Virus record (IMG/VR): IMGVR_UViG_3300032304_001269 | Coordinates: 10,067-74,066 of that record | Reading direction: 5' to 3' (one strand) | Origin: a virus | Taxonomy: Duplodnaviria > Heunggongvirae > Uroviricota > Caudoviricetes | Length of the DNA stretch: 64,000 bases | The notes under the pieces: generated by a model | Databases searched by the model: none | What the model was told of the DNA's origin: nothing | The model's input: the letters and a program-made list of their open reading frames with translations, nothing else | Program-made: the position numbers and the translations under genes | Shown: piece after piece, positions 666 to 53,412 of the stretch | How positions within the stretch are numbered: the first letter of the stretch is position 1 | Layout: each line of letters starts with the position of its first letter

Positions 666-1045
666 ACTTACAAACATTAGGTAAAATAGACAAAGGGTGG
701 GGATTCGAATTGGTGTTTGCCAACAACGACAAATACTGCGGAAAACTTTTGGTATTTGATCGTGCAGGTGCCAAAACCAGTTTGGTGTTTCACAAAGAGA
801 AATACAAGAGTTGGTTCATCAATGCTGGCAAGTTCCGAGTTACCTATATCGATGTCAGCACAGGTGAAACCAAGGAAGCTATTCTAGAAGAAGGCAAGAC
901 CGCAGACTTCGGTGCCCTTGGCCCGCATCAGATTGAAGCACTGGTTGCCAACAGTGTGATCTTTGAAGTCAGTACTGCTGACTACGTGGAAGATCGCTTT
1001 AGACTTGCGCCGGGTGACACGCAAACGAAGCAGTCAGCGCAGTAA
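662..1045 (+). CDS. hypothetical protein
   Basis: 127-aa ORF whose start overlaps the clpP stop (ATGA). No recognisable motif. Confidence 0.45.
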
Positions 1046-2210
1046 TCAAATCTTCAATCATACTATCATCGTGGAACGGAGTAGGTGCAATACGTAATCT
1101 TTCCGTGCCCACAGCCACAGTAGGGGAATTAATTGGCTGGATATAGATGTTGTGCTCATTAAGCAGATCATCACTGATGGCCTTGCATCGTTTGGCTTCC
1201 CCAATTAGGATAGGAACAATGTGTGTGGTAGTACATTCCATAGCAGGCATGCCAGCCACTGCCAATCTATGCTTTAACTTTCTAGCACGTTCTTGATGTT
1301 TATCTCTGAGCTCTTGATGATCCTTGAGATACTTGACCGCAGCCAGAGCCCCTGCACACGAAACAGGGCTCATTGATGTAGTGAATATAAAACCTGCAGC
1401 TACAGAACGGATGGCGTCGATGACCTCAGCATCGGCAGCTATATAGCCACCTTGGACTCCATAGGCTTTCCCTAATGTACCGTTGACTATGTCAACACGG
1501 GATTGTAGCCCTAGCTCTTCAACTTTCCCACCACCGTGGGGTCCATAGAGTCCTACTGCATGTACTTCATCGATGTAGGTCATAGCACCATATCGATCTG
1601 CTAGGTCGCAGATCTCTTTGATGTGTCCTACGTCGCCATCCATTGAATAAACTGATTCAAATACAATACAAGGCACGTTGCCTGTGAGTTGTATTGAAGT
1701 TAGTATGTCTTCTAGGTGATCGAGGTCGTTGTGACGGAACACTGTTTTAGGTGCTCGGCTGTGTATCATGCCAATGACTAGGCTGTTGTGGTTCTCACTG
1801 TCCGACACAAAATGTATGTTGGGTATGATTTTACTTAGAGCAATTAATGTCCATTCGTTGGCTACATAAGCAGAGCTGAACAGTAGTGCTCGTGCCTTGT
1901 TGTGTAGAGTGGCTAGCTCGTGTTCTAGAGCCACATGATAGTGGCTAGTTCCTGCAATGTTGCGGGTGCCACCTGATCCTGCACCTGTGTGATCTAGTGC
2001 TGTATGCATGGCGTCTAACACAACCTTGTGCTGGCCCATGCCTAAATAGTCGTTGCTGCACCAGTTTGTAATGCTCTTGATGTTGTAGGGCCCGTACCAC
2101 ATGGCTGAAGGAAATTTGCCCTTTTCACGGATGATGTCATTGAACACACGGTATTTTCCGTTATCTTTCAGCGTTTTAAGCAGTGTGTTAAAGGGAGTTT
2201 TGTTTATCAT
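999..2210 (-). CDS. hemA: 5-aminolevulinate synthase (PLP-dependent alpha-oxoamine synthase family, ALAS/HemA type)
   Basis: 403 aa. [12 protein letters not shown] near the N-terminus, [13 protein letters not shown], and a TLGKAYG Lys-PLP site all match ALAS. They do not fit BioF or Kbl as well. Confidence 0.8.
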
Positions 2211-10026: not shown

Positions 10027-10674
10027 ATGAAACCTACAATCGCACTATTTTTGCATGATCCAAGATGCTCAGTACAATGTGGTAATGGTATAATAAAGGC
10101 ACTGGGTCAACACTATAACTTCAAAATCTTTGGATTAAACAAAGTCGAAGACGTATTTTTTGATGACGTGGACATAGTGGCTTTTCCTGGGGGTGAAGGT
10201 GACAGCGAATCCTGGCATAGATTGCTTAAGGTCAACAAACCACAGATATTAAATTTTATTAGCCGCGGCGGTCATTATCTTGGAATTTGCATGGGGGCAT
10301 ACTGGGCAGGAAGTTATTACTTTGATATCTTAGATGAAGTGGATGCTGTTCAATATATTGCCCAACCAAATACTGACACACGTCGCCCACATGCTAAGGC
10401 AATTGATGTGGTATGGAATGGACATCCTGAAAGGATGTTTTTTTATGATGGCTGCGCCTTAGTTGGTAATAACAATAAATTTGAAACCATAGCTACCTAT
10501 GCCAATGGCGATGCAATGGCGATTATACAAAATAGAATAGGACTCATAGGATGCCACCCAGAAAGTGAAAAGTTTTGGTATGACGCTTATTATAGTTGGA
10601 TGAAACCTCATTATCATAACGGACTTCATCATAAACTTTTACTTGACTTTGTAGACAAATTATTTTATAAATAA
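10027..10674 (+). CDS. class I glutamine-amidotransferase-like (BPL_N-like) protein
   Basis: 215 aa. A GICMGAY nucleophile-elbow-like motif and a FPGGEGD motif are present. Confidence 0.45.
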
Positions 10675-10953: not shown

Positions 10954-12630
10954 ATGGATAGATATAAAGATTTAGAACTATTAGTAAAACAATTCAGGCG
11001 AGAATTACCCAGTGACGCAAAATACACTACAAGACTCGAAGAAGAATTAGAATTAATTAGAGATCAAAATTTTTCAAAACACTTCTTACGTGTTAGAGAA
11101 ATATTAGATCTCACAACAGACATACCACATATCACGAGAGGTTCAGCAGGATCTAGTTTGGTGTGCTGGCTTATGGGAATCAGTGATCTTGATCCTGTGG
11201 CAGAAAACATTCCCATTGCACGTTTTATGAATCCCAAACGTGACGACTTACCTGACATTGATTTAGATTTCCCGCACTGGCAACAGGCCACAGTGATGAA
11301 TCGCATATTCAAACGCTGGCCTGGACAAAGTGCTAGAGTTTCTAATTATGTCATGTACAAAGAAAAAAGCGCCAAGAGAGAAGCTGCCAAGAGACTAGGC
11401 GCTAAAGGTACACTCAAGCGTGGATTTGAATTCAGCCAGGTGTTACCGCAAGAAGAGATAGCGGAGGCCGAACGAGTTACTGCCAAGCTCATGGGCAAGA
11501 AACGCTGTATTTCAAAACACTGTGGTGGTATATTGATCTTTGATCGTGCTGTGCCTAAAAGCTTGATCAACGGTGACAATCAGATCCTATTAGACAAGTA
11601 TGAAACTGAAGATCTTGAACACTTCAAGATAGACATCTTGGCCAATCGTGGACTTAGCCAACTGTGGGAAATAGATCAGCGCCCACTAACAGACTATCCG
11701 GAACTGGATGACGCAACCAGTGAACTGCTAGCTAGAGGTGATGTGTTGGGAGTTACCCAAGGCGAATCGCCTGCTATGAAACGCTTGTTTAGAGCACTAA
11801 AAGTCAAGAGCAAAAGCGACTGTACTCTAGCCACAGCACTGATTCGTCCGGTGGCCACACAGGGTCGACGAAAGGCCAGCGCCTTTCAAGACTGGAGTGC
11901 AGACACTATACAACAGGACACAGTGGTGTTTGAGGATGATGCCATTACCATGATTGCTGACATACTAGAATGTGACATGTACACCGCCGACATGTGGCGC
12001 AGAGCGTTTGCCAAACGTAATGAAGAAAAAATCTACGAATTCATGCAGTTGATTGGAGACCATCCCAAGCGTGATCGTGTGTTGGCTTCTTTGAGAGAAC
12101 TCAGTCATTTTGGTCTTTGTCGTGCTCATGCTACTAACTTGGGTAGATTGATATGGGCGTTGGCCTATCACAAGGCACATAATCCTGAGAAGTTCTGGAA
12201 GGCCTGTCTAAAACACTGTGAAGGCAGTTACAGCAAATGGGTATACTGGCAAGAAGCCAAACTGGCTGGTGCTGTTCCAGCGCCACTGGAAGGCGGTGAG
12301 TGTGCTGAGTTGGCCCGCACCGGTCGATGGAGTAGCGGTAGTTTTATTCCGGCATGTACTGAGATTCGACGTCCTGGCGAAGTTGAATTTCTTGGACTAG
12401 TGGCAAACTATCGTGTATTCAAAAGCGGTCCTAAAGACTATATAACCTTTGCCACACTAGGCACTGGTAATGGTCGTTATCTAGATGTTATGTTGCCACA
12501 TGCTATTAGTTTCGCAGATCAACCAATCTTATGGGGCAAGGGTCGATTAGACTATACAAACAGCTCAGAATGTGTTAAAGTATATAAGAGTAAGAAATTA
12601 CATCTCAAAGACATAGAGCATATCACATAA
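10954..12630 (+). CDS. DnaE-family (Pol III alpha-like) polymerase catalytic core, truncated (no PHP domain)
   Basis: ITRGSAGSSLVCWLMGISDLDP ... ARFMNPKRDDLPDIDLDF closely parallels the DnaE palm motif GRGSAAGSLV...FERFLNPERVSMPDFDVDF. Only 558 aa. Confidence 0.7.
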   Translation: MDRYKDLELLVKQFRRELPSDAKYTTRLEEELELIRDQNFSKHFLRVREILDLTTDIPHITRGSAGSSLVCWLMGISDLDPVAENIPIARFMNPKRDDLPDIDLDFPHWQQATVMNRIFKRWPGQSARVSNYVMYKEKSAKREAAKRLGAKGTLKRGFEFSQVLPQEEIAEAERVTAKLMGKKRCISKHCGGILIFDRAVPKSLINGDNQILLDKYETEDLEHFKIDILANRGLSQLWEIDQRPLTDYPELDDATSELLARGDVLGVTQGESPAMKRLFRALKVKSKSDCTLATALIRPVATQGRRKASAFQDWSADTIQQDTVVFEDDAITMIADILECDMYTADMWRRAFAKRNEEKIYEFMQLIGDHPKRDRVLASLRELSHFGLCRAHATNLGRLIWALAYHKAHNPEKFWKACLKHCEGSYSKWVYWQEAKLAGAVPAPLEGGECAELARTGRWSSGSFIPACTEIRRPGEVEFLGLVANYRVFKSGPKDYITFATLGTGNGRYLDVMLPHAISFADQPILWGKGRLDYTNSSECVKVYKSKKLHLKDIEHIT

Positions 12631-35090: not shown

Positions 35091-35501
35091 ATGAAAAAAT
35101 TATTTTGGAACATATTAGGATTTATCAGTCTAGGCTTGGCCTACATAGGATTAATCACTCCAGGTATACCATACTCACCGTTTATTGTATTCTCCGCTTA
35201 TTGCTTCTCCAAAGGTTCAGAACGCATGCACCGTTGGATCTACAATCATCCAATCTTCGGCCCGTTTCTTACAAATTGGAATGAAAAGAGAGTATTTCCA
35301 CAGAAAATGCGCTATTTGATGTTGACAATGATGTCAATAAGCCTTATAATGATGTATGTGAGTGGAGTAAAGCCTGTGGGCATATTAAGCACAGCAGGAT
35401 TTATGTTGATTGTGGCAATTTGGGCTTGGAGATTTCCTAATACCCCAGAAGAACACGATCGCCGCAAAGCAGCTGGTGAAAAGATAGGTTGGCTTAAATA
35501 A
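35091..35501 (+). CDS. DUF454/YbaN-family inner-membrane protein
   Basis: N-terminal ILGFISLGLAYIGLITPGIPYSPFIV matches the YbaN family. Confidence 0.6.
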   Translation: MKKLFWNILGFISLGLAYIGLITPGIPYSPFIVFSAYCFSKGSERMHRWIYNHPIFGPFLTNWNEKRVFPQKMRYLMLTMMSISLIMMYVSGVKPVGILSTAGFMLIVAIWAWRFPNTPEEHDRRKAAGEKIGWLK

Positions 35502-35545
35502 CAACACACACAGATAAACATTTTTAACACAAGGAAAAAAGTAAA

Positions 35546-35749
35546 ATGGTAACAGGAAAAGTAAAATGGTTTAACGACGCCAAGGGTTTTGGCTTTATTA
35601 CGCCGGACGATGGTGGCGCAGACTTATTTGCTCACTTTTCACAGATTAGTTCGAGTGGCTTCAAAAGCCTACAAGAAGGACAGAGTGTAAGGTTTGAAGT
35701 AACTCAGGGTCAAAAAGGACAACAGGCTAGTAACATTCAGCCTGCCTAA
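35546..35749 (+). CDS. cspA: cold-shock protein (CspA family)
   Basis: [15 protein letters not shown] and DLFAHFS RNP motifs; 67 aa. Confidence 0.85.
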
Positions 35750-36067
35750 GGAATTGTTGTAATCCCTTCAAAGCGAAGGCGTTCAAGACGCCGGTTCGAA
35801 TCCGGCCACCTCCACCTAAGTGTATTAGAAGTATATTTAGGTGGGGGTGCTCTGGTAATCGATTGAGCGAGATAGTGGCGACGGCAACACGGTAGGCGAT
35901 GACCGTAAATCAAGCAAAACTCGTAAATGCAAACGCAGATACATTTGACTTCAGCGCAATGAGCTTCACTGGTAACACCGTTCGCGGTGCTGCTAATGAC
36001 AGCAGATTTGCTCTAGCTGCCTAAAAAACAGCGGTCCGAGGTAGTTATACCTTGTAATCCAAAATAG
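35750..36067 (+). ncRNA. ssrA: tmRNA (ssrA), permuted two-piece gene. The acceptor piece ends at CC near 35816. The coding piece starts at GGGGGTG near 35843.
   Basis: T-arm GCCGG-TTCGAAT-CCGGC at 35790-35806, followed by the 3' acceptor strand CACCTCC, a discriminator A and CC. Downstream, GGGGGTG (35843-35849) pairs with that strand and gives the G3:U70 alanine identity pair. A tag reading frame at 35992-36024 encodes ANDSRFALAA and ends in a stop. A terminator hairpin follows. Confidence 0.7.
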
Positions 36068-36095
36068 CAGAGCCCGCTTCGGCGGGTTTCTTTTT
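36068..36095 (+). terminator. rho-independent terminator after the tmRNA
   Basis: GCCCGC-TTCG-GCGGG followed by a T-run. Confidence 0.6.
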
Positions 36096-36119
36096 GGGAT
36101 TAATTCAAGAAATAAAAGG

Positions 36120-36148
36120 TTGACTTTTCACAGCCATAAGTATAATAT
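36120..36148 (+). promoter_or_regulatory. sigma70-like promoter
   Basis: TTGACT at 36120-36125 and TATAAT/TAATAT at 36141-36148, with a 15-17 nt spacer, upstream of the OMP gene. Confidence 0.4.
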
Positions 36149-36184: not shown

Positions 36185-36739
36185 ATGAAATTTACAAAAC
36201 AACTGACACTTGCACTGGCCTCATTATTGGTCACAGGTTCAGCATTGGCCAATGGCTACGCTACCTATGAGTATAGTGAAGAAGAAAATCGCGCAACCAG
36301 CGCCAACAACATTGTCAACGCAGTGGTAGTTGGCTTCAAGGCCGCTGAAGGTTGGGACTACAGTCTCAAAACCAACACCAGCCAAACTGCTCTGGGTTCC
36401 GGCTCAATCAGTTCAGGTATAGAAGTTCGTGCTAGAAAATCATTGGGCGCATTCTACGTTGGTGGGCGACTAGGTGAACGCATTACCAGCGCCACACACT
36501 TCAGCACATATGCTGTTGATGCTGGTGTTAAGTTTCCATTGGCAGCAGGCTTCACTGGCGATGTCGGCGGCCGTTATCGCAATGCTTTTGAAAGCGGTAA
36601 AAGCTACGAAACAACTCGTGCGCATGCCACAGTGGCCTATGCATTGACCAAACAAGACTCAGTGGCCGTGCGTTTTTCACGTTCTTACGGTGACGAAGAA
36701 AAAGATGCATGGCGTTTAAGCTACACACGCGGTTTCTAA
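36185..36739 (+). CDS. small outer-membrane beta-barrel protein
   Basis: Signal peptide ending ALA-NG. Alternating amphipathic strands. C-terminal YTRGF with a terminal Phe. Confidence 0.5.
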   Translation: MKFTKQLTLALASLLVTGSALANGYATYEYSEEENRATSANNIVNAVVVGFKAAEGWDYSLKTNTSQTALGSGSISSGIEVRARKSLGAFYVGGRLGERITSATHFSTYAVDAGVKFPLAAGFTGDVGGRYRNAFESGKSYETTRAHATVAYALTKQDSVAVRFSRSYGDEEKDAWRLSYTRGF

Positions 36740-45449: not shown

Positions 45450-45533
45450 TATAAATAAAATTGTGAATTGCACCGTCAAGGGCAGTTTATAGAGCATAGT
45501 GCTCAAATAGATCTTACTTTAAAGGAGATAGAC

Positions 45534-47432
45534 ATGTCTAAGATCATCGGTATTGACCTCGGCACCACCAACTCATGCGTGGCTGTTATCGAGAACGGAA
45601 AATCCAAAGTTATTGAGAATTCAGAAGGTGCAAGAACCACACCCTCAATTGTGGCTTATACCCCAGAAGAAATTATTGTCGGCGCTTCGGCCAAACGACA
45701 GGCAGTAACAAATCCTAAAAACACAATTTATGCCAGCAAGCGATTGATTGGTCGCAAGTTTAAAGAACAGGCTGTGCAGAAAGACCTTGATCTCATGCCC
45801 TATGAGATCTACGAAAATTCTAACGGTGATGCTTGGGTTCGAGCTCAAGGCAAAGAACTAGCACCTCCACAGATTTCAGCAGAAGTTCTACGTAAAATGA
45901 AGAAGACCGCAGAGGACTATCTGGGACATGAAGTGACTCAAGCAGTTATCACTGTGCCTGCATACTTCAATGACAGTCAACGTCAAGCAACCAAAGACGC
46001 AGGTAAGATTGCCGGCCTGGAAGTTCTACGTATTATCAATGAGCCGACAGCGGCTGCACTGGCCTATGGTGTAGACAAAGAAGACAAGAAGGATCGAAAG
46101 ATTGCTGTATATGACCTAGGCGGTGGTACGTTTGACGTAAGCATTATTGAAATTGCTAATGTGGATGGAGAGAAACAGATCGAAGTGTTATCTACCAATG
46201 GTGATACATTTCTAGGTGGAGAAGATTTCGATCAACGTATCATGGATCATCTCTGCGATGAATTCAAGAAAGAACAGGGTGTTGATCTTACCAAAGATAT
46301 GTTGGCCCTGCAACGACTAAAAGATGCAGCAGAAAAAGCAAAGATAGAATTATCTAGTAACACCAGTACAGATGTTAATCTACCTTATATCACTGCGGAC
46401 GCTTCTGGTCCGCGTCATATGAACATCAAGATCAGTCGTGCTAAGTTAGAGTCGTTGGTAGCAGAACTGGTCAATAGAAGTTTAGAGCCATGCCGTACAG
46501 CTCTCAAAGACGCAGGCGTGAGTGCCTCAGACATCGACGAAGTTATCTTAGTTGGCGGTCAAACACGCATGCCTAAGGTGCAAGAAGAAGTTGAGAAACT
46601 GTTTGGCAAAGCACCACGTAGAGATGTCAATCCAGATGAAGCAGTAGCAGTCGGTGCTGCTATCCAAGGTGCTGTATTGGGTGGTGATCGCAAAGACGTT
46701 CTATTATTAGATGTAACACCTTTGAGTTTAGGTATCGAGACTATGGGCGGTGTGATGTCAAAGATCATCCAAAAGAACACAACGATTCCAACTAAAGGAC
46801 AGCAGACGTTCTCCACAGCAGAAGACAATCAACCAGCTGTGGATATCAAAGTATTCCAAGGTGAACGTGAGCTTGTACAATATAACAAACTGTTAGGCGA
46901 ATTCAAACTAGACGGCATTGCTCCTGCACGTAGAGGACAACCACAGGTTGAGGTTACTTTTGACATTGATGCCAACGGTATCATGCACATCTCAGCCAAA
47001 GACAAGGCCACAGGCAAAGAAAACAAGATCACTATCAAGTCCAACAGTGGACTATCAGAAGCTGAAATTCAAGCTATGATCAAAGACGCAGAGTTGAATG
47101 CAGAAGCAGATAAGAAAGCTCGTACATTGATCGATACAAGAAACTCAGCAGAAGCGCAGGTACACGAAGTCAAAAAAGATCTTGAAGAATTCCGTGCAGA
47201 GCTCACAGAAGCAGAAGTCACAGAAATCGAAACTGTGATCACCGCAGTCGAAACAGCAGCCAAAGGCGATGACGCTGAAAAGATCACCGAAGAGCTCAAC
47301 AAGGTTTTCCCAGCAATGAAAACATTGTTGGAGAAAAAGCAGGCCAAGGAACAGGCAGCACAAGCACAGCCTACTCAGCCTGAAGCAGATGATGTAGTTG
47401 ATGCCAGCTTCACAGAGAAAAAGGCAGACTAA
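45534..47432 (+). CDS. dnaK: molecular chaperone DnaK (Hsp70)
   Basis: N-terminal [14 protein letters not shown], then DLGGGTFD and [22 protein letters not shown] before the ATG at 45534. The track ORF extends upstream to 45468. Confidence 0.9.
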
Positions 47433-47488: not shown

Positions 47489-47932
47489 ATGAACAATCAA
47501 TTAACAAAATTAGATGCTCTAAGCAGAGCACTCATTGGGTTCGACACTATGTTTGACCAAATGGAACGCCGGTATGCTAACAGCGTACCCAACAACTATC
47601 CACCACACAATATTCTCAAGACTGGTGACAATCTGTATGAGATTCAAATTGCTGTGACAGGATTTGAGAAATCGGAAATTTCTGTTACTGTGGAATCCAA
47701 TGTTCTTACAGTTGCAGGTGAAGGAGCAGAATCTATTCGCCACGAACAACCGGAAATCGTTTACCTACACAGAGGTCTTGCTACTCGCGATTTCGTCAAA
47801 GAATTTCCCCTGGCAGAACACATCGAGGTAGTAGGTGCAGAAATCCGTAACGGAATGCTAATTGTTAAATTAATACGCAATGTTCCTGAAAGCGCCAAGC
47901 CCAAGGTCATTGACATCGTTGACATTAAATAG
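47489..47932 (+). CDS. small heat-shock protein (Hsp20/IbpA family)
   Basis: Alpha-crystallin domain YEIQIAVTGFEKSEISV ... AEIRNGMLIVKL. Confidence 0.8.
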   Translation: MNNQLTKLDALSRALIGFDTMFDQMERRYANSVPNNYPPHNILKTGDNLYEIQIAVTGFEKSEISVTVESNVLTVAGEGAESIRHEQPEIVYLHRGLATRDFVKEFPLAEHIEVVGAEIRNGMLIVKLIRNVPESAKPKVIDIVDIK

Positions 47933-47986: not shown

Positions 47987-48286
47987 ATGTCAACAGATAC
48001 CGCAGTAGAAGAATCAGTAGTTGTAGCACTTAAGCCACCTGGTTTATGGAAGGTGATTTTTCTCAATGATGATTCCACTCCGATGGAATTGGTTATAGAA
48101 CTGCTCACAGGAATTTTCAAGCACACAGTATCATCCGCTAAAGAAGTCACCCTGGAAATACATGAAACTGGCAGCGGCGTGGCCGGTGTTTACAGTTTTG
48201 AAATAGCCGAACAAAAAGGCATGGAAGCCACTGCCGTGGCTAGACAGAATGGTTCACCTTTACGTGTACAAGTGGACCCGGAATGA
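47987..48286 (+). CDS. clpS: Clp protease adaptor ClpS
   Basis: WKVIFLNDDSTPMELVIELL and the HETGSGVAGVYSFEIAEQK ClpS core. Confidence 0.8.
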   Translation: MSTDTAVEESVVVALKPPGLWKVIFLNDDSTPMELVIELLTGIFKHTVSSAKEVTLEIHETGSGVAGVYSFEIAEQKGMEATAVARQNGSPLRVQVDPE

Positions 48287-51306: not shown

Positions 51307-53412
51307 ATGAAATTATCTAAATCAGCCATGGTGGCGCTGGCTTTCCTGTTCACCTCAGTAGCAAATGCATTTGAGTCCGGCACAGACTATAATAGTGCAA
51401 ACATGTCTTATACCGCTAATAGCACTATCAGTCAAAATATAGTATTTGATAATGCGATGCAAAGTGGTGGTACACTGACTTTTTCAGTAGAAGCACACGC
51501 AGGTGGTGGTAGAAATCTACAACACGATACCGGTCAACTCAAACTAGAATACTACAACGGCAGCACTCTACTGGGTTCAAGTACTACCAGTTATGCCACA
51601 GGTAATCTACTACAAATGAATGCCTGGAGTTCAGGTCCAGGTGACAACTCAGAACCTTGGAGTACACTATCATTGACTTCTACTGATTGTGGTACTGCAG
51701 GCAGTTGTGCCAGTGTCACTCATGTCAAAGTTATCATGATTGGTACAGATACATCATGGTGGGCAGGTAATTATGGTCCACAATGGCGTGTACCAACAGT
51801 AACATTCACACCAACAGGTGGATCGGCGGGCAGCAACATATTGTATAATCCAGAGTTTGGTCTTGATCCAACAGGTGTATTTGCACAAGGTTGGACCAGT
51901 TCTTCCAGTTGGGGTGCTTGCGGTACAACCAGTGGATCTGTAATGTGTACAACCACAGCAGCCGGCGTCACAGCAAACATGAGCGGTGGCGGCTATGATG
52001 CCAATGGTGGTACTACAGCAGCAACACCAGGTGGATATACAGGTACATTGTCAGTTACATCATTTAGCGGCAGTGGCGGCGGATCAGGAAGTGGATCACC
52101 TACTGTAACAGGAACTACAACGACCAATCAAACTACCACCAGCAACAGCAGAGGCTCAAGTACAACCGCTACCAGCACAGTTGATGGTACGGCTTCAGAA
52201 ACAGATGTAGTGACCAGAGGAACCTCAGTCACTACAGTAGTTGAAACTAGAAATCGTGGTGATCAAACAGCAAAAACTCTAACTGTTAATCAGGTGTTCA
52301 CTACCACTGTGACCACACCGGTGACCACTACAACCACTACAGTTACACCTTACACCACAACTACCACAGTCACAACACCAGTAACAGTTACTACAGTCAC
52401 AACACCAGTAACAGTTACTACATACAGTGACGGAACATCAACAACTACAAACGGTACAGCCACTACCAGTACCAGTACCAGCGATGAAGTTGTTACCAGC
52501 GTTGTAGTAGGTACTACCACAACAGTTGCGGCTGTTACTGTGGATGAGGTGCTGTCCAGTGCCACAACCACAGCATATCAGACCAGAATTGATCAGTTTG
52601 ATAGACTAGCAGAAGCTAACATACGAGAAAATTCTATGTTAGTCAGCGATCCATTAATTCGTCATAGAGCCCACGACGGTGAAATTAAATTAATAGGTGC
52701 AAATGTCAACGAACGCACTGTGTTTGATATCACAGCATCGAGATCAGGTACCGATACTGTTGACGGATATCAATCAACTGCTAATCGGTACAGTTTAGGT
52801 ATAGCACATTTGGTAAAAACTGATTTAATGATCGGCGGACAGTTTAGTCAAATTAACCTAAACATGGATGGAAATAACAGCACAGGATCTTTGTATAAAA
52901 ATGCTGTAAATTTATACGCACTATGGACTAGAAACGATTGGTTAGTCAAAGGCGATGTTGGGCATGCAAAAAATAAATTTAATACCACTCACGCACTTCC
53001 TGATTTAAATTTATCAAATAGTGCCAGTGCCGCAGGCGAAGACTTATGGGCACAGGTAAGACTTTATACCCCTGCTAAGAAAGGCGTTAGATTGTTTGCT
53101 GGTGCTAGAAAAGAACAAAATCGTCGAGACTCGGCGACTGATTCAGGATCAGCACTATCAGCAGTTGACTATGCCGCAGTTAATAAGATAACTGATACCA
53201 CCGAAGCAGGTATACGTGTTGATCATTATGTCAACGACAAGATGAGTGTGTATGCAGAATACAGCCAAAACAGTAGACAGTTAGAAACTGGCAAAGCAGG
53301 CCTGAGCTTTATTTCTAAAAAGAATGCTACTATTCAAATAGGCACTATTCAACAAAGACAAAATGATCTACGAAACAGTGGCGCGATGTTAGAGTTGAAA
53401 ATTTTATTTTAA
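51307..53412 (+). CDS. secreted Thr/Val-rich repeat protein with C-terminal beta-barrel-like (autotransporter-like) region
   Basis: Signal peptide, a long (T/V)-rich PVTVTT repeat tract, and a C-terminal amphipathic-strand domain ending in LELKILF with a terminal Phe. Confidence 0.4.
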   Translation: MKLSKSAMVALAFLFTSVANAFESGTDYNSANMSYTANSTISQNIVFDNAMQSGGTLTFSVEAHAGGGRNLQHDTGQLKLEYYNGSTLLGSSTTSYATGNLLQMNAWSSGPGDNSEPWSTLSLTSTDCGTAGSCASVTHVKVIMIGTDTSWWAGNYGPQWRVPTVTFTPTGGSAGSNILYNPEFGLDPTGVFAQGWTSSSSWGACGTTSGSVMCTTTAAGVTANMSGGGYDANGGTTAATPGGYTGTLSVTSFSGSGGGSGSGSPTVTGTTTTNQTTTSNSRGSSTTATSTVDGTASETDVVTRGTSVTTVVETRNRGDQTAKTLTVNQVFTTTVTTPVTTTTTTVTPYTTTTTVTTPVTVTTVTTPVTVTTYSDGTSTTTNGTATTSTSTSDEVVTSVVVGTTTTVAAVTVDEVLSSATTTAYQTRIDQFDRLAEANIRENSMLVSDPLIRHRAHDGEIKLIGANVNERTVFDITASRSGTDTVDGYQSTANRYSLGIAHLVKTDLMIGGQFSQINLNMDGNNSTGSLYKNAVNLYALWTRNDWLVKGDVGHAKNKFNTTHALPDLNLSNSASAAGEDLWAQVRLYTPAKKGVRLFAGARKEQNRRDSATDSGSALSAVDYAAVNKITDTTEAGIRVDHYVNDKMSVYAEYSQNSRQLETGKAGLSFISKKNATIQIGTIQQRQNDLRNSGAMLELKILF
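52367..52420. repeat. 27-bp perfect tandem direct repeat (x2) inside the Thr-rich gene
   Basis: CAGTCACAACACCAGTAACAGTTACTA occurs twice in a row, encoding VTTPVTVTT repeats. Confidence 0.8.

Follow-up and report, generated by a model that had tools for sequence, protein, structure and literature searches.

A betaproteobacterial-type permuted tmRNA gene with a long, conserved tag frame behind cspA in an IMG/VR phage record

We analyzed a stretch of 64,000 nucleotides from the IMG/VR virus record IMGVR_UViG_3300032304_001269 (positions 10,067 to 74,066 of that record; hereafter the window, in whose own numbering all coordinates are given) and found on its plus strand, at 35755-36095, a gene for a transfer-messenger RNA (tmRNA; ssrA). 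With a probability of roughly 0.8, we read this gene as a functional phage-borne ssrA of the betaproteobacterial circularly permuted type. It is complete, it stands directly behind a cspA-like cold-shock gene, and its reading frame specifies a tag of 31 residues, ANADTFDFSAMSFTGNTVRGAANDSRFALAA, where the modal tag length is 10 (PMC11915505). Comparison with its relatives shows that purifying selection acts on both the fold and the tag peptide of this permuted ssrA.

ARAGORN called one gene only in the whole window, a permuted tmRNA with a tag at 35725-36115, and two Rfam covariance models matched the same place over their full length: beta_tmRNA (RF01850; 144 bits against a gathering threshold of 84, E = 4.6e-44, model positions 1-331) and tmRNA_permuted (RF04321; 130.1 bits against 47, E = 3.5e-25, model positions 1-213). 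These were the only two matches at gathering thresholds across the window, and within clan CL00001 beta_tmRNA was the best-scoring member and the sole survivor as best overlapping match. The initial annotation of this DNA, made from the sequence by a model, had proposed a two-piece ssrA in circularly permuted order that has its tRNA-like domain, its tag frame and its terminator, and had named ARAGORN and Rfam covariance models as checks; both bore the proposal out, and the locus is confirmed as real, far above chance expectation.

The order of the parts is that of a circular permutation, the 3' acceptor half (35807-35813) lying upstream of the 5' strand (35843-35849). The acceptor piece (35755-35816, covered by the Rfam alignments) opens with one strand of helix P2 (35755-35786) and continues with a T-arm, GCCGG/UUCGAAU/CCGGC with a GGUUCGAAUCC-type loop, read directly from the sequence at 35790-35806, the 3' acceptor strand CACCUCC (35807-35813), a discriminator A (35814) and CC (35815-35816); a T follows, and the terminal A of CCA is therefore unencoded, as in the beta consensus. 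A spacer, measured at 26 nt (35817-35842), separates the two acceptor strands. The coding piece (35843-36069), defined by the Rfam alignments, pair counts and a minimum free energy (MFE) fold, starts with the 5' acceptor strand GGGGGUG (35843-35849), whose G3 (G35845) forms the G3:U70 alanine identity pair with U35811. There follow the second P2 strand (35863-35889), a hairpin at the PK1 position after P2 (35890-35905), the tag frame, a P5 hairpin with the UAA stop in its loop (36016-36032) and a 3' hairpin (36039-36052), and the gene closes with an intrinsic terminator found by terminator scan, GAGCCCGC-UUCG-GCGGGUUU with a U-run, at 36070-36095. The T-arm with its 3' acceptor strand (35790-35816), the downstream 5' strand with G3:U70 and the terminator hairpin at the gene end are all as originally described.

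To judge the fold, we aligned the window gene with 31 non-redundant relatives (alignment A1, 32 sequences; MAFFT, structure-blind) and projected on it the helices of the Rfam alignments together with three hairpins picked by eye. In A1, 91.4% of cells pair normally; shifting the 3' partners by 1-3 columns lowers this to 40-50%. Compensatory changes, with both sides altered, occur at 31 of the 48 pairs across the 32 sequences, and none of 500 shuffles reached the observed covariation score. The acceptor stem and the T-arm are 100% paired in the 32 sequences, with three compensatory pairs each. Four variants of the acceptor stem occur (CACCUCC/GGGGGUG, CAGGUCC/GGGCCUG, CUCGUCC/GGGCGAG and CGUCUCC/GGGGACG), and the U:G at acceptor position 3 stays invariant while the rest of the stem varies. 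The P2 helices that join the two pieces (helices 1-3) are 97%, 77% and 100% paired, with both-side change in 11 of 16 pairs; the hairpin at 35890-35905 is 90.6% paired with all four pairs compensatory, the terminator stem (helix 10) shows compensatory change among relatives in all seven pairs, and the stop-codon hairpin and the 3' hairpin are likewise supported by pair counts. An MFE fold of 35755-36095 recovered the same helices independently (z-score -4.4). In the MFE fold of the precursor the acceptor stem extends into the spacer as a hairpin of ~20 bp; among relatives the spacer ranges from 26 to >70 nt and its sequence is freely variable. No pseudoknot partner was identified by eye for the conserved loop AGGCGAUG of the 35890-35905 hairpin, and the Rfam models themselves omit pseudoknots (PMC11915505).

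A permissive Rfam scan gave a second, partial beta_tmRNA match (model positions 239-304 at 36004-36068), which indicates that the tag region, compared with the bacterial consensus, carries an insertion of ~65 nt. Because of this insertion the beta model misplaces the 3' hairpin, at 35972-35994; we rejected that placement as an alignment artefact, given the partial match at 36004-36068 and the real terminator at 36070-36095. Some relatives (L127, L170 and L136; A1 columns 62-72) read ...GUCCAA or ...CUCCAA after the acceptor strand, with CC itself unencoded, and other copies in the family encode the full CCA, so that 3'-end maturation must differ among copies. The 9-nt sequence TTGTAATCC forms a direct repeat: one copy lies at 35757-35765, within the P2 strand with which the acceptor piece opens, the other at 36052-36060, in the 3' tail of the coding piece. 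The tail block CCTTGTAAYC is kept across the family; the repeat may be a vestige of a permuting tandem duplication or an alternative pairing partner.

The tag frame runs for 31 codons from the resume codon GCA at 35929 to the UAA at 36022-36024 (35929-36024 in all, plus strand). This resume codon was placed by both ARAGORN and the RF04321 alignment and is preceded by UAAAU; the context UAAAU/GCA AAC is invariant across 32 relatives that comprise long-tag phage copies and short-tag bacterial ones. The resume site aligns with the Rfam consensus UAAAUGCAAACG, and the near-invariance of this block between the long-tag phage copies and the short-tag bacterial copies makes GCA 35929 homologous to the bacterial resume codon. 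The initial annotation had given the tag as ANDSRFALAA. Its codons are present at 35992-36021 (35992-36024 with the stop) and the expected resume-codon context was indeed found, but at 35929, so that this peptide forms only the last 10 of the 31 residues.

We consider it quite improbable that translation resumes instead at GCU 35992, which would yield the canonical 10-residue tag ANDSRFALAA and leave the upstream 63 nt as untranslated structured RNA. AANDSRFALAA does resemble a complete canonical tag, one relative has exactly this sequence (11 residues) called by ARAGORN, and hairpins are possible within 35960-36005; however, the conserved UAAAU/GCA AAC that aligns with the bacterial resume codon sits at 35929, and three close relatives (L043, L030 and L074) lack the AAND restart, yet their frame is open from the same resume codon to ...VALAA. 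The pattern of substitution also argues for translation of the upstream part. Between the window and L004 the differences number 3, 1 and 11 at first, second and third codon positions (binomial P = 0.0018), and nine unique sequences recovered with tag-external patterns require at minimum 8, 6 and 18 changes over the 18-codon extension, again favoring the third position; in this test, loci found with the tag pattern were left out over the pattern region because that pattern fixes the first and second codon positions. Indels in the region are always multiples of three; where tags of the family vary in length, they do so by complete codons, and their C-termini read LAA, VAA or the like.

What the sequences show directly is the gene with its fold and conservation, and a constraint on the peptide encoded by the whole 31-codon frame; the tag extension is preserved as a peptide in at least 85 IMG/VR contigs. 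Its conserved part, of 18-20 residues, reads A-D-T-F-[DE]-F-x-A-[ML]-x-F-T-G-N-T-V, in which many of the conserved internal residues have aromatic or hydrophobic side chains, and sister phage tags start with the related x-S-T-F-[EK]-[YF]-[FW]. Elsewhere in the window, neither the 60-nt insert nor its peptide recurs.

Scans of IMG/VR returned 81 contigs for the permuted acceptor arrangement, 85 contigs for the tag extension when any base was allowed at third codon positions (some of these records being 280-353 kb long) and at least 120 matches for the pre-tag block. Across all fetched loci ARAGORN called 224 viral tmRNAs with 127 distinct tags, 55 of which are 22-33 residues long. The closest relative overall among these loci was a viral one, L145 (86% identity over 379 nt). 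Among the matches listed, the sole bacterial genomes with the pre-tag block were Alcaligenaceae (Advenella, Pelistega and Brackiella), whose tag is ANDESYALAA and whose copies are 72-74% identical to the window gene over ~160 nt; the tags of the bacterial relatives found are all 9-10 residues long. With the tag-independent block pattern, tags of at least 20 residues were seen in 23 of 89 viral copies and in none of 25 copies from bacterial genomes among the matches listed (Fisher P = 0.003), a contrast that is only indicative since the bacterial copies all come from one family. Against 50,697 deposited phage records, megablast with 12 kb around the gene found no match, and a distant blastn search with the tmRNA gave only two 74-nt matches, in Pseudomonas phages; the window gene has no close cultured relative in this deposited collection.

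Among the phage copies, tmRNA body and tag type look shuffled. The tRNA-like/P2 half of the window gene is nearest to a short-tag phage copy, L021 (89% over 189 nt), the window tag is nearly identical to that of L004, though the P2 region of L004 is quite different, and L133 has the window's tag with another acceptor stem; such mismatched pairings of body and tag (L004, L021, L133, L043) suggest recombination between phage tmRNAs. At L048, L066 and other loci, further long-tag families were seen in viral beta-type tmRNAs, including ANASTGEVTVSGKNVKFSAR...FAV/LAV tags, which end in AV instead of AA, and AK(T/A)STF(E/K)(Y/F)(F/W)... tags, which have a T-F-x-F/Y start in common with the window tag; alpha-like contigs carry the tag ATQRDSMRKNNVLAFVPRFVAPMQ(L/M)AA. 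Phage-like tmRNA blocks (L082, L085, L090, L096 and L099) also lie on contigs of metagenome-assembled genomes (MAGs) labeled Flavobacteriaceae, Crocinitomicaceae, Dongiaceae, Ignavibacteria and Alteromonadales. These contigs are probably mis-binned viral contigs, which makes the MAG taxonomic labels unfit for host calls.

The placement of the tmRNA directly after cspA, already noticed in the initial annotation, was confirmed: a cspA/cspE-like cold-shock gene for 67 residues occupies 35546-35749 on the plus strand (PF00313 CSD, 105.6 bits; NCBIfam CspE, E = 2.8e-34), its TAA stop lies at 35747-35749, and the tmRNA gene begins 5 nt later. This linkage is a family trait. A cspA homologue was found less than 300 nt upstream on the same strand at 58 of the 72 long-tag loci with enough upstream DNA, compared with 8 of 138 other viral tmRNA loci. 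Upstream of cspA, at 35322-35350 and inside the DUF454 open reading frame (ORF) at 35091-35501, lies a putative sigma-70 promoter on the plus strand, TTGACA-17 nt-TATAAT, that matches 12 of 12 consensus positions and would drive cspA together with the tmRNA precursor; of 40 unique upstream regions of the family, 34 have a site with at least 11 of 12 matches and a 17-nt spacer no more than 300 nt before cspA. The terminator scan detected none between cspA and the tmRNA. As judged from these signals, the simplest reading would be one cspA-ssrA transcript ending at 36095, which the conserved cspA linkage and the promoter support, and the cspA-ssrA unit itself is conserved in a clade of uncultured large phages. 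The leader of ~190 nt before cspA (35351-35545) is reminiscent of the long E. coli cspA 5' untranslated region. The permissive Rfam scan revealed nothing credible as a cspA thermoregulator or riboswitch near the gene, its isrK, rsmX and snoRNA matches being far under gathering scores, and no riboswitch reached Rfam thresholds at the tmRNA gene. Directly downstream of the tmRNA, ORF 36185-36739 is preceded by a promoter-like site of its own (36120-36148), and its N-terminus resembles a signal peptide; it had no match in Pfam, PHROGs or NCBIfam, weak homologues occupy the same position in L043, L030 and L074, and it may encode a small outer-membrane protein.

The phage identity of the surrounding DNA is well supported, while the window alone does not prove it. 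PHROG and Pfam matches include tail proteins, an exonuclease, both subunits of ribonucleotide reductase (RNR), a DnaE fragment and many auxiliary genes, and matches to phage families flank the tmRNA gene on both sides. Several IMG/VR contigs have the flanking genes (glutaredoxin, ORF 32806, the DUF454 protein, cspA, AhpC and an AhpD-like protein) in synteny. The DnaE (Pol III alpha) fragment (10954-12630, 558 residues), which holds the NTPase and finger domains only, is 36% identical to that of a 484-kb uncultured huge phage, the nearest deposited relatives being distant, and another ORF, 41% identical to one of Pelagibacter phage Mosig, has further matches in jumbo Xanthomonas and Stenotrophomonas phages. 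Major capsid, portal and terminase genes were not recognized among the scanned window ORFs, so that phage identity rests on the other hallmark matches and on the IMG/VR relatives.

We give little credence to the view that the window is a bacterial chromosome or a prophage junction and the gene the host's own ssrA. Several genes do look bacterial, namely DnaK, ClpP, AhpC, a class I/II aminotransferase (999-2210, minus strand) and an autotransporter-like ORF (51307-53412, 701 residues, with an autotransporter beta-domain), tmRNA genes are common integration sites (PMC4383910), and the lack of a recognized capsid or terminase gene would fit. Nevertheless, tail, exonuclease and RNR genes, the truncated DnaE and the Mosig/jumbo-phage ORF stand on both sides, many IMG/VR contigs (up to 353 kb long) show synteny with the flanks, G+C is even (0.38-0.47) with nearly all ORFs on one strand, no integrase was found among the ORFs scanned, and the bacterial genomes that share the block have 10-residue tags and only 72-74% identity.

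On the preferred reading of a functional phage ssrA, the gene would work as follows. Host sigma-70 polymerase would start at the 35322-35350 promoter and produce a single transcript that spans cspA and the tmRNA precursor and ends at the 36070-36095 terminator. By analogy with general tmRNA biology (PMC11915505, PMC3985003), RNase P would cleave 5' of G35843; tRNA 3'-end processing would trim the acceptor piece to ...ACC, the CCA-adding enzyme would supply the terminal A, and the 26-nt spacer would be lost, as in two-piece tmRNA processing (PMC11915505), leaving two pieces joined through P2 and the 7 bp of the acceptor stem. Alanyl-tRNA synthetase would then charge the RNA via G3:U70, and host SmpB and EF-Tu would bring it to stalled ribosomes, where translation would resume at GCA 35929, add 31 residues and stop at UAA 36022. 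The C-terminal ALAA would direct the product to ClpXP/ClpAP-type degradation, to which the phage could contribute its own ClpP.

The window carries several genes that could act in such a pathway. ClpP (78-665) scored 317 bits with NF001368 against a cut-off of 249 and has intact catalytic Ser/His/Asp motifs, DnaK (45468-47432) scored 983 bits, Hsp20 lies at 47489-47932, and a ClpS-like adaptor (47987-48286) matched with E = 3e-23, under curated cut-offs; neither ClpX nor ClpA was seen in the window. ClpP, the ClpS-like protein, DnaK, Hsp20 and CspA likely form a phage-encoded proteostasis set, and the likely benefit of the tmRNA beside them would be that ribosomes are kept free and truncated proteins recycled during infection by a large phage.

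Several observations weigh against a functional ssrA of this kind. A tblastn search with an E. coli SmpB query gave no match in the 64-kb window or the fetched loci, so that function would depend on host SmpB. The terminal A of CCA is unencoded, the beta model fails to place the 3' hairpin correctly, and capsid, portal and terminase are missing from the recognized ORFs. The third-position excess is significant, yet it comes from few independent sequences (P = 0.0018 for one pair, ~0.02 for nine sequences), and hairpins inside the tag extension could contribute constraint at the RNA level. Finally, transcription, processing, charging, tagging and proteolysis are steps that we infer.

The lack of a phage SmpB in that search would also suit an RNA that acts mainly as a decoy, titrating host SmpB or blocking host trans-translation, as described for mycobacteriophage DS6A, whose RNA consists of a tRNA-like domain only and inhibits tmRNA (as cited in PMC4131195 and PMC11915505). 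A decoy, however, needs no tag frame, resume context, stop or ALAA, whereas here all four are retained, the stop within the P5 loop, and the peptide is constrained across the family, which leaves this explanation with a very small share of the probability. Scarcely credible is a recently captured host gene or att-site relic without function in the phage, since, although temperate phages often carry ssrA fragments (PMC9004378, PMC4383910), this gene is complete, dozens of diverged phage copies retain every helix through compensatory changes, the bacterial copies found are at most 74% identical over ~160 nt, and the cspA-tmRNA arrangement and its promoter are conserved.

The long conserved tag is the distinctive feature of the gene and carries a modest upside. 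The dull alternative for the extension is a neutral spacer, and the most interesting possibility is a second degron or adaptor site. It is conceivable, though on balance doubtful, that the extension is a phage-specific tag module of the latter sort, routing rescued chains to a particular protease or chaperone; under this tentative reading the candidate partners would be Lon, or the phage ClpP with a host unfoldase, and the clade would run a tailored trans-translation system from a cspA-ssrA operon, as distinct from carrying a redundant host gene. If the extension does alter recognition by proteases or adaptors, it would be a compact natural degron variant and a new route for phage control of host proteostasis.

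Phage-borne two-piece tmRNAs and the beta lineage have both been published, and the window gene is a further example. In the literature searched, we did not find a description of a conserved family of 28-33-residue tags, of the restriction (so far) of long tags to viral contigs, or of the tight cspA linkage of long-tag tmRNAs. More generally, phage-borne tmRNAs indicate that large phages invest in the upkeep of host ribosomes, and the present gene adds a beta-type example from a phage clade with no cultured or deposited representative; about a quarter of the phage copies among the matches listed from the tag-independent search have tags of 23-31 residues conserved at the protein level, as against 9-10 residues in the bacterial relatives found.

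The lineage and host assignments of the initial annotation did not hold. It had placed the gene with the permuted tmRNAs of alphaproteobacteria and some cyanobacteria, but the best match in the clan is the beta model RF01850, not RF01849 or RF01851, and the bacterial genomes that share the block are Alcaligenaceae. It had also taken the type of tmRNA as evidence for such a host, a view to which phage Melnitz is a counterexample: Melnitz carries an alpha-type tmRNA, and its Methylophilales host, on the beta/gamma branch, has a beta-type one (PMC9004378). The type of tmRNA is a weak guide to the host, and the present case is a caution against its use as a host marker. As candidates for the host, we considered the Alcaligenaceae (72-74% identity) and the MAG labels and found neither usable for a host call.

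Among known systems, the window gene is closest in design to the two-piece tmRNA of betaproteobacteria (RF01850), the third permuted lineage (Sharkady and Williams 2004, as cited in PMC9004378). The two have in common the permuted order, the tRNA-like domain with G3:U70, the P2 architecture, the hairpin after P2, the UAAAU/GCN AAC resume context, the ...ALAA end, the stop in a hairpin loop, the 3' terminal hairpin and an encoded CC rather than CCA, and the block AGGCGAUGACCGUAAAUCAAGCAAA is common to the window gene and those of Advenella, Pelistega and Brackiella. Unlike the bacterial beta tmRNAs, the gene is carried by a phage, specifies a tag of 31 rather than 10 residues through the insertion of ~65 nt, and follows cspA instead of standing alone. 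Two-piece tmRNAs of phages have been reported from the Methylophilales phage Melnitz, from Pelagibacter myophages and, in a 2022 survey, as 53 unique cases, mostly aquatic, in a 2021 phage database (PMC9004378; its supplement lists the phages and gives no tag sequences). Like the Melnitz group, the window has a complete permuted ssrA that belongs to a large aquatic myophage genome of lytic appearance, follows an early-type promoter and has no integrase nearby; glutaredoxin, ORF 32806 and the hydrolase ORF 40340 are also common to the window and contigs of that group. The gene differs in being beta-type, whereas that of Melnitz is alpha-type with a glutamine riboswitch in its 3' part, and the tags of the pelagiphage-like contigs, ANNSDYS[SP]AQVALAA, are 15 residues long compared with 31 here.

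One-piece phage tmRNAs, known from Bxz1-group mycobacteriophages, Bacillus phage G and huge phages (PMC4131195, PMC7162821), are likewise ribosome-rescue RNAs supplied by a phage, usually beside translation or proteostasis genes; in contrast to the window gene they are unpermuted, and some huge phages also carry SmpB. For tag length, the nearest parallel is the long ssrA tag of Mesoplasma and Mycoplasma, which is recognized by Lon (the MfssrA-MfLon pair; PMC10695633). Like that tag, the one described here is far longer than the usual 10 residues and rich in aromatic and hydrophobic internal residues, and recognition of the window tag by Lon would be a conjecture; unlike it, the window tag has no sequence similarity to the Mesoplasma and Mycoplasma tag and retains a ClpX-type ALAA end.

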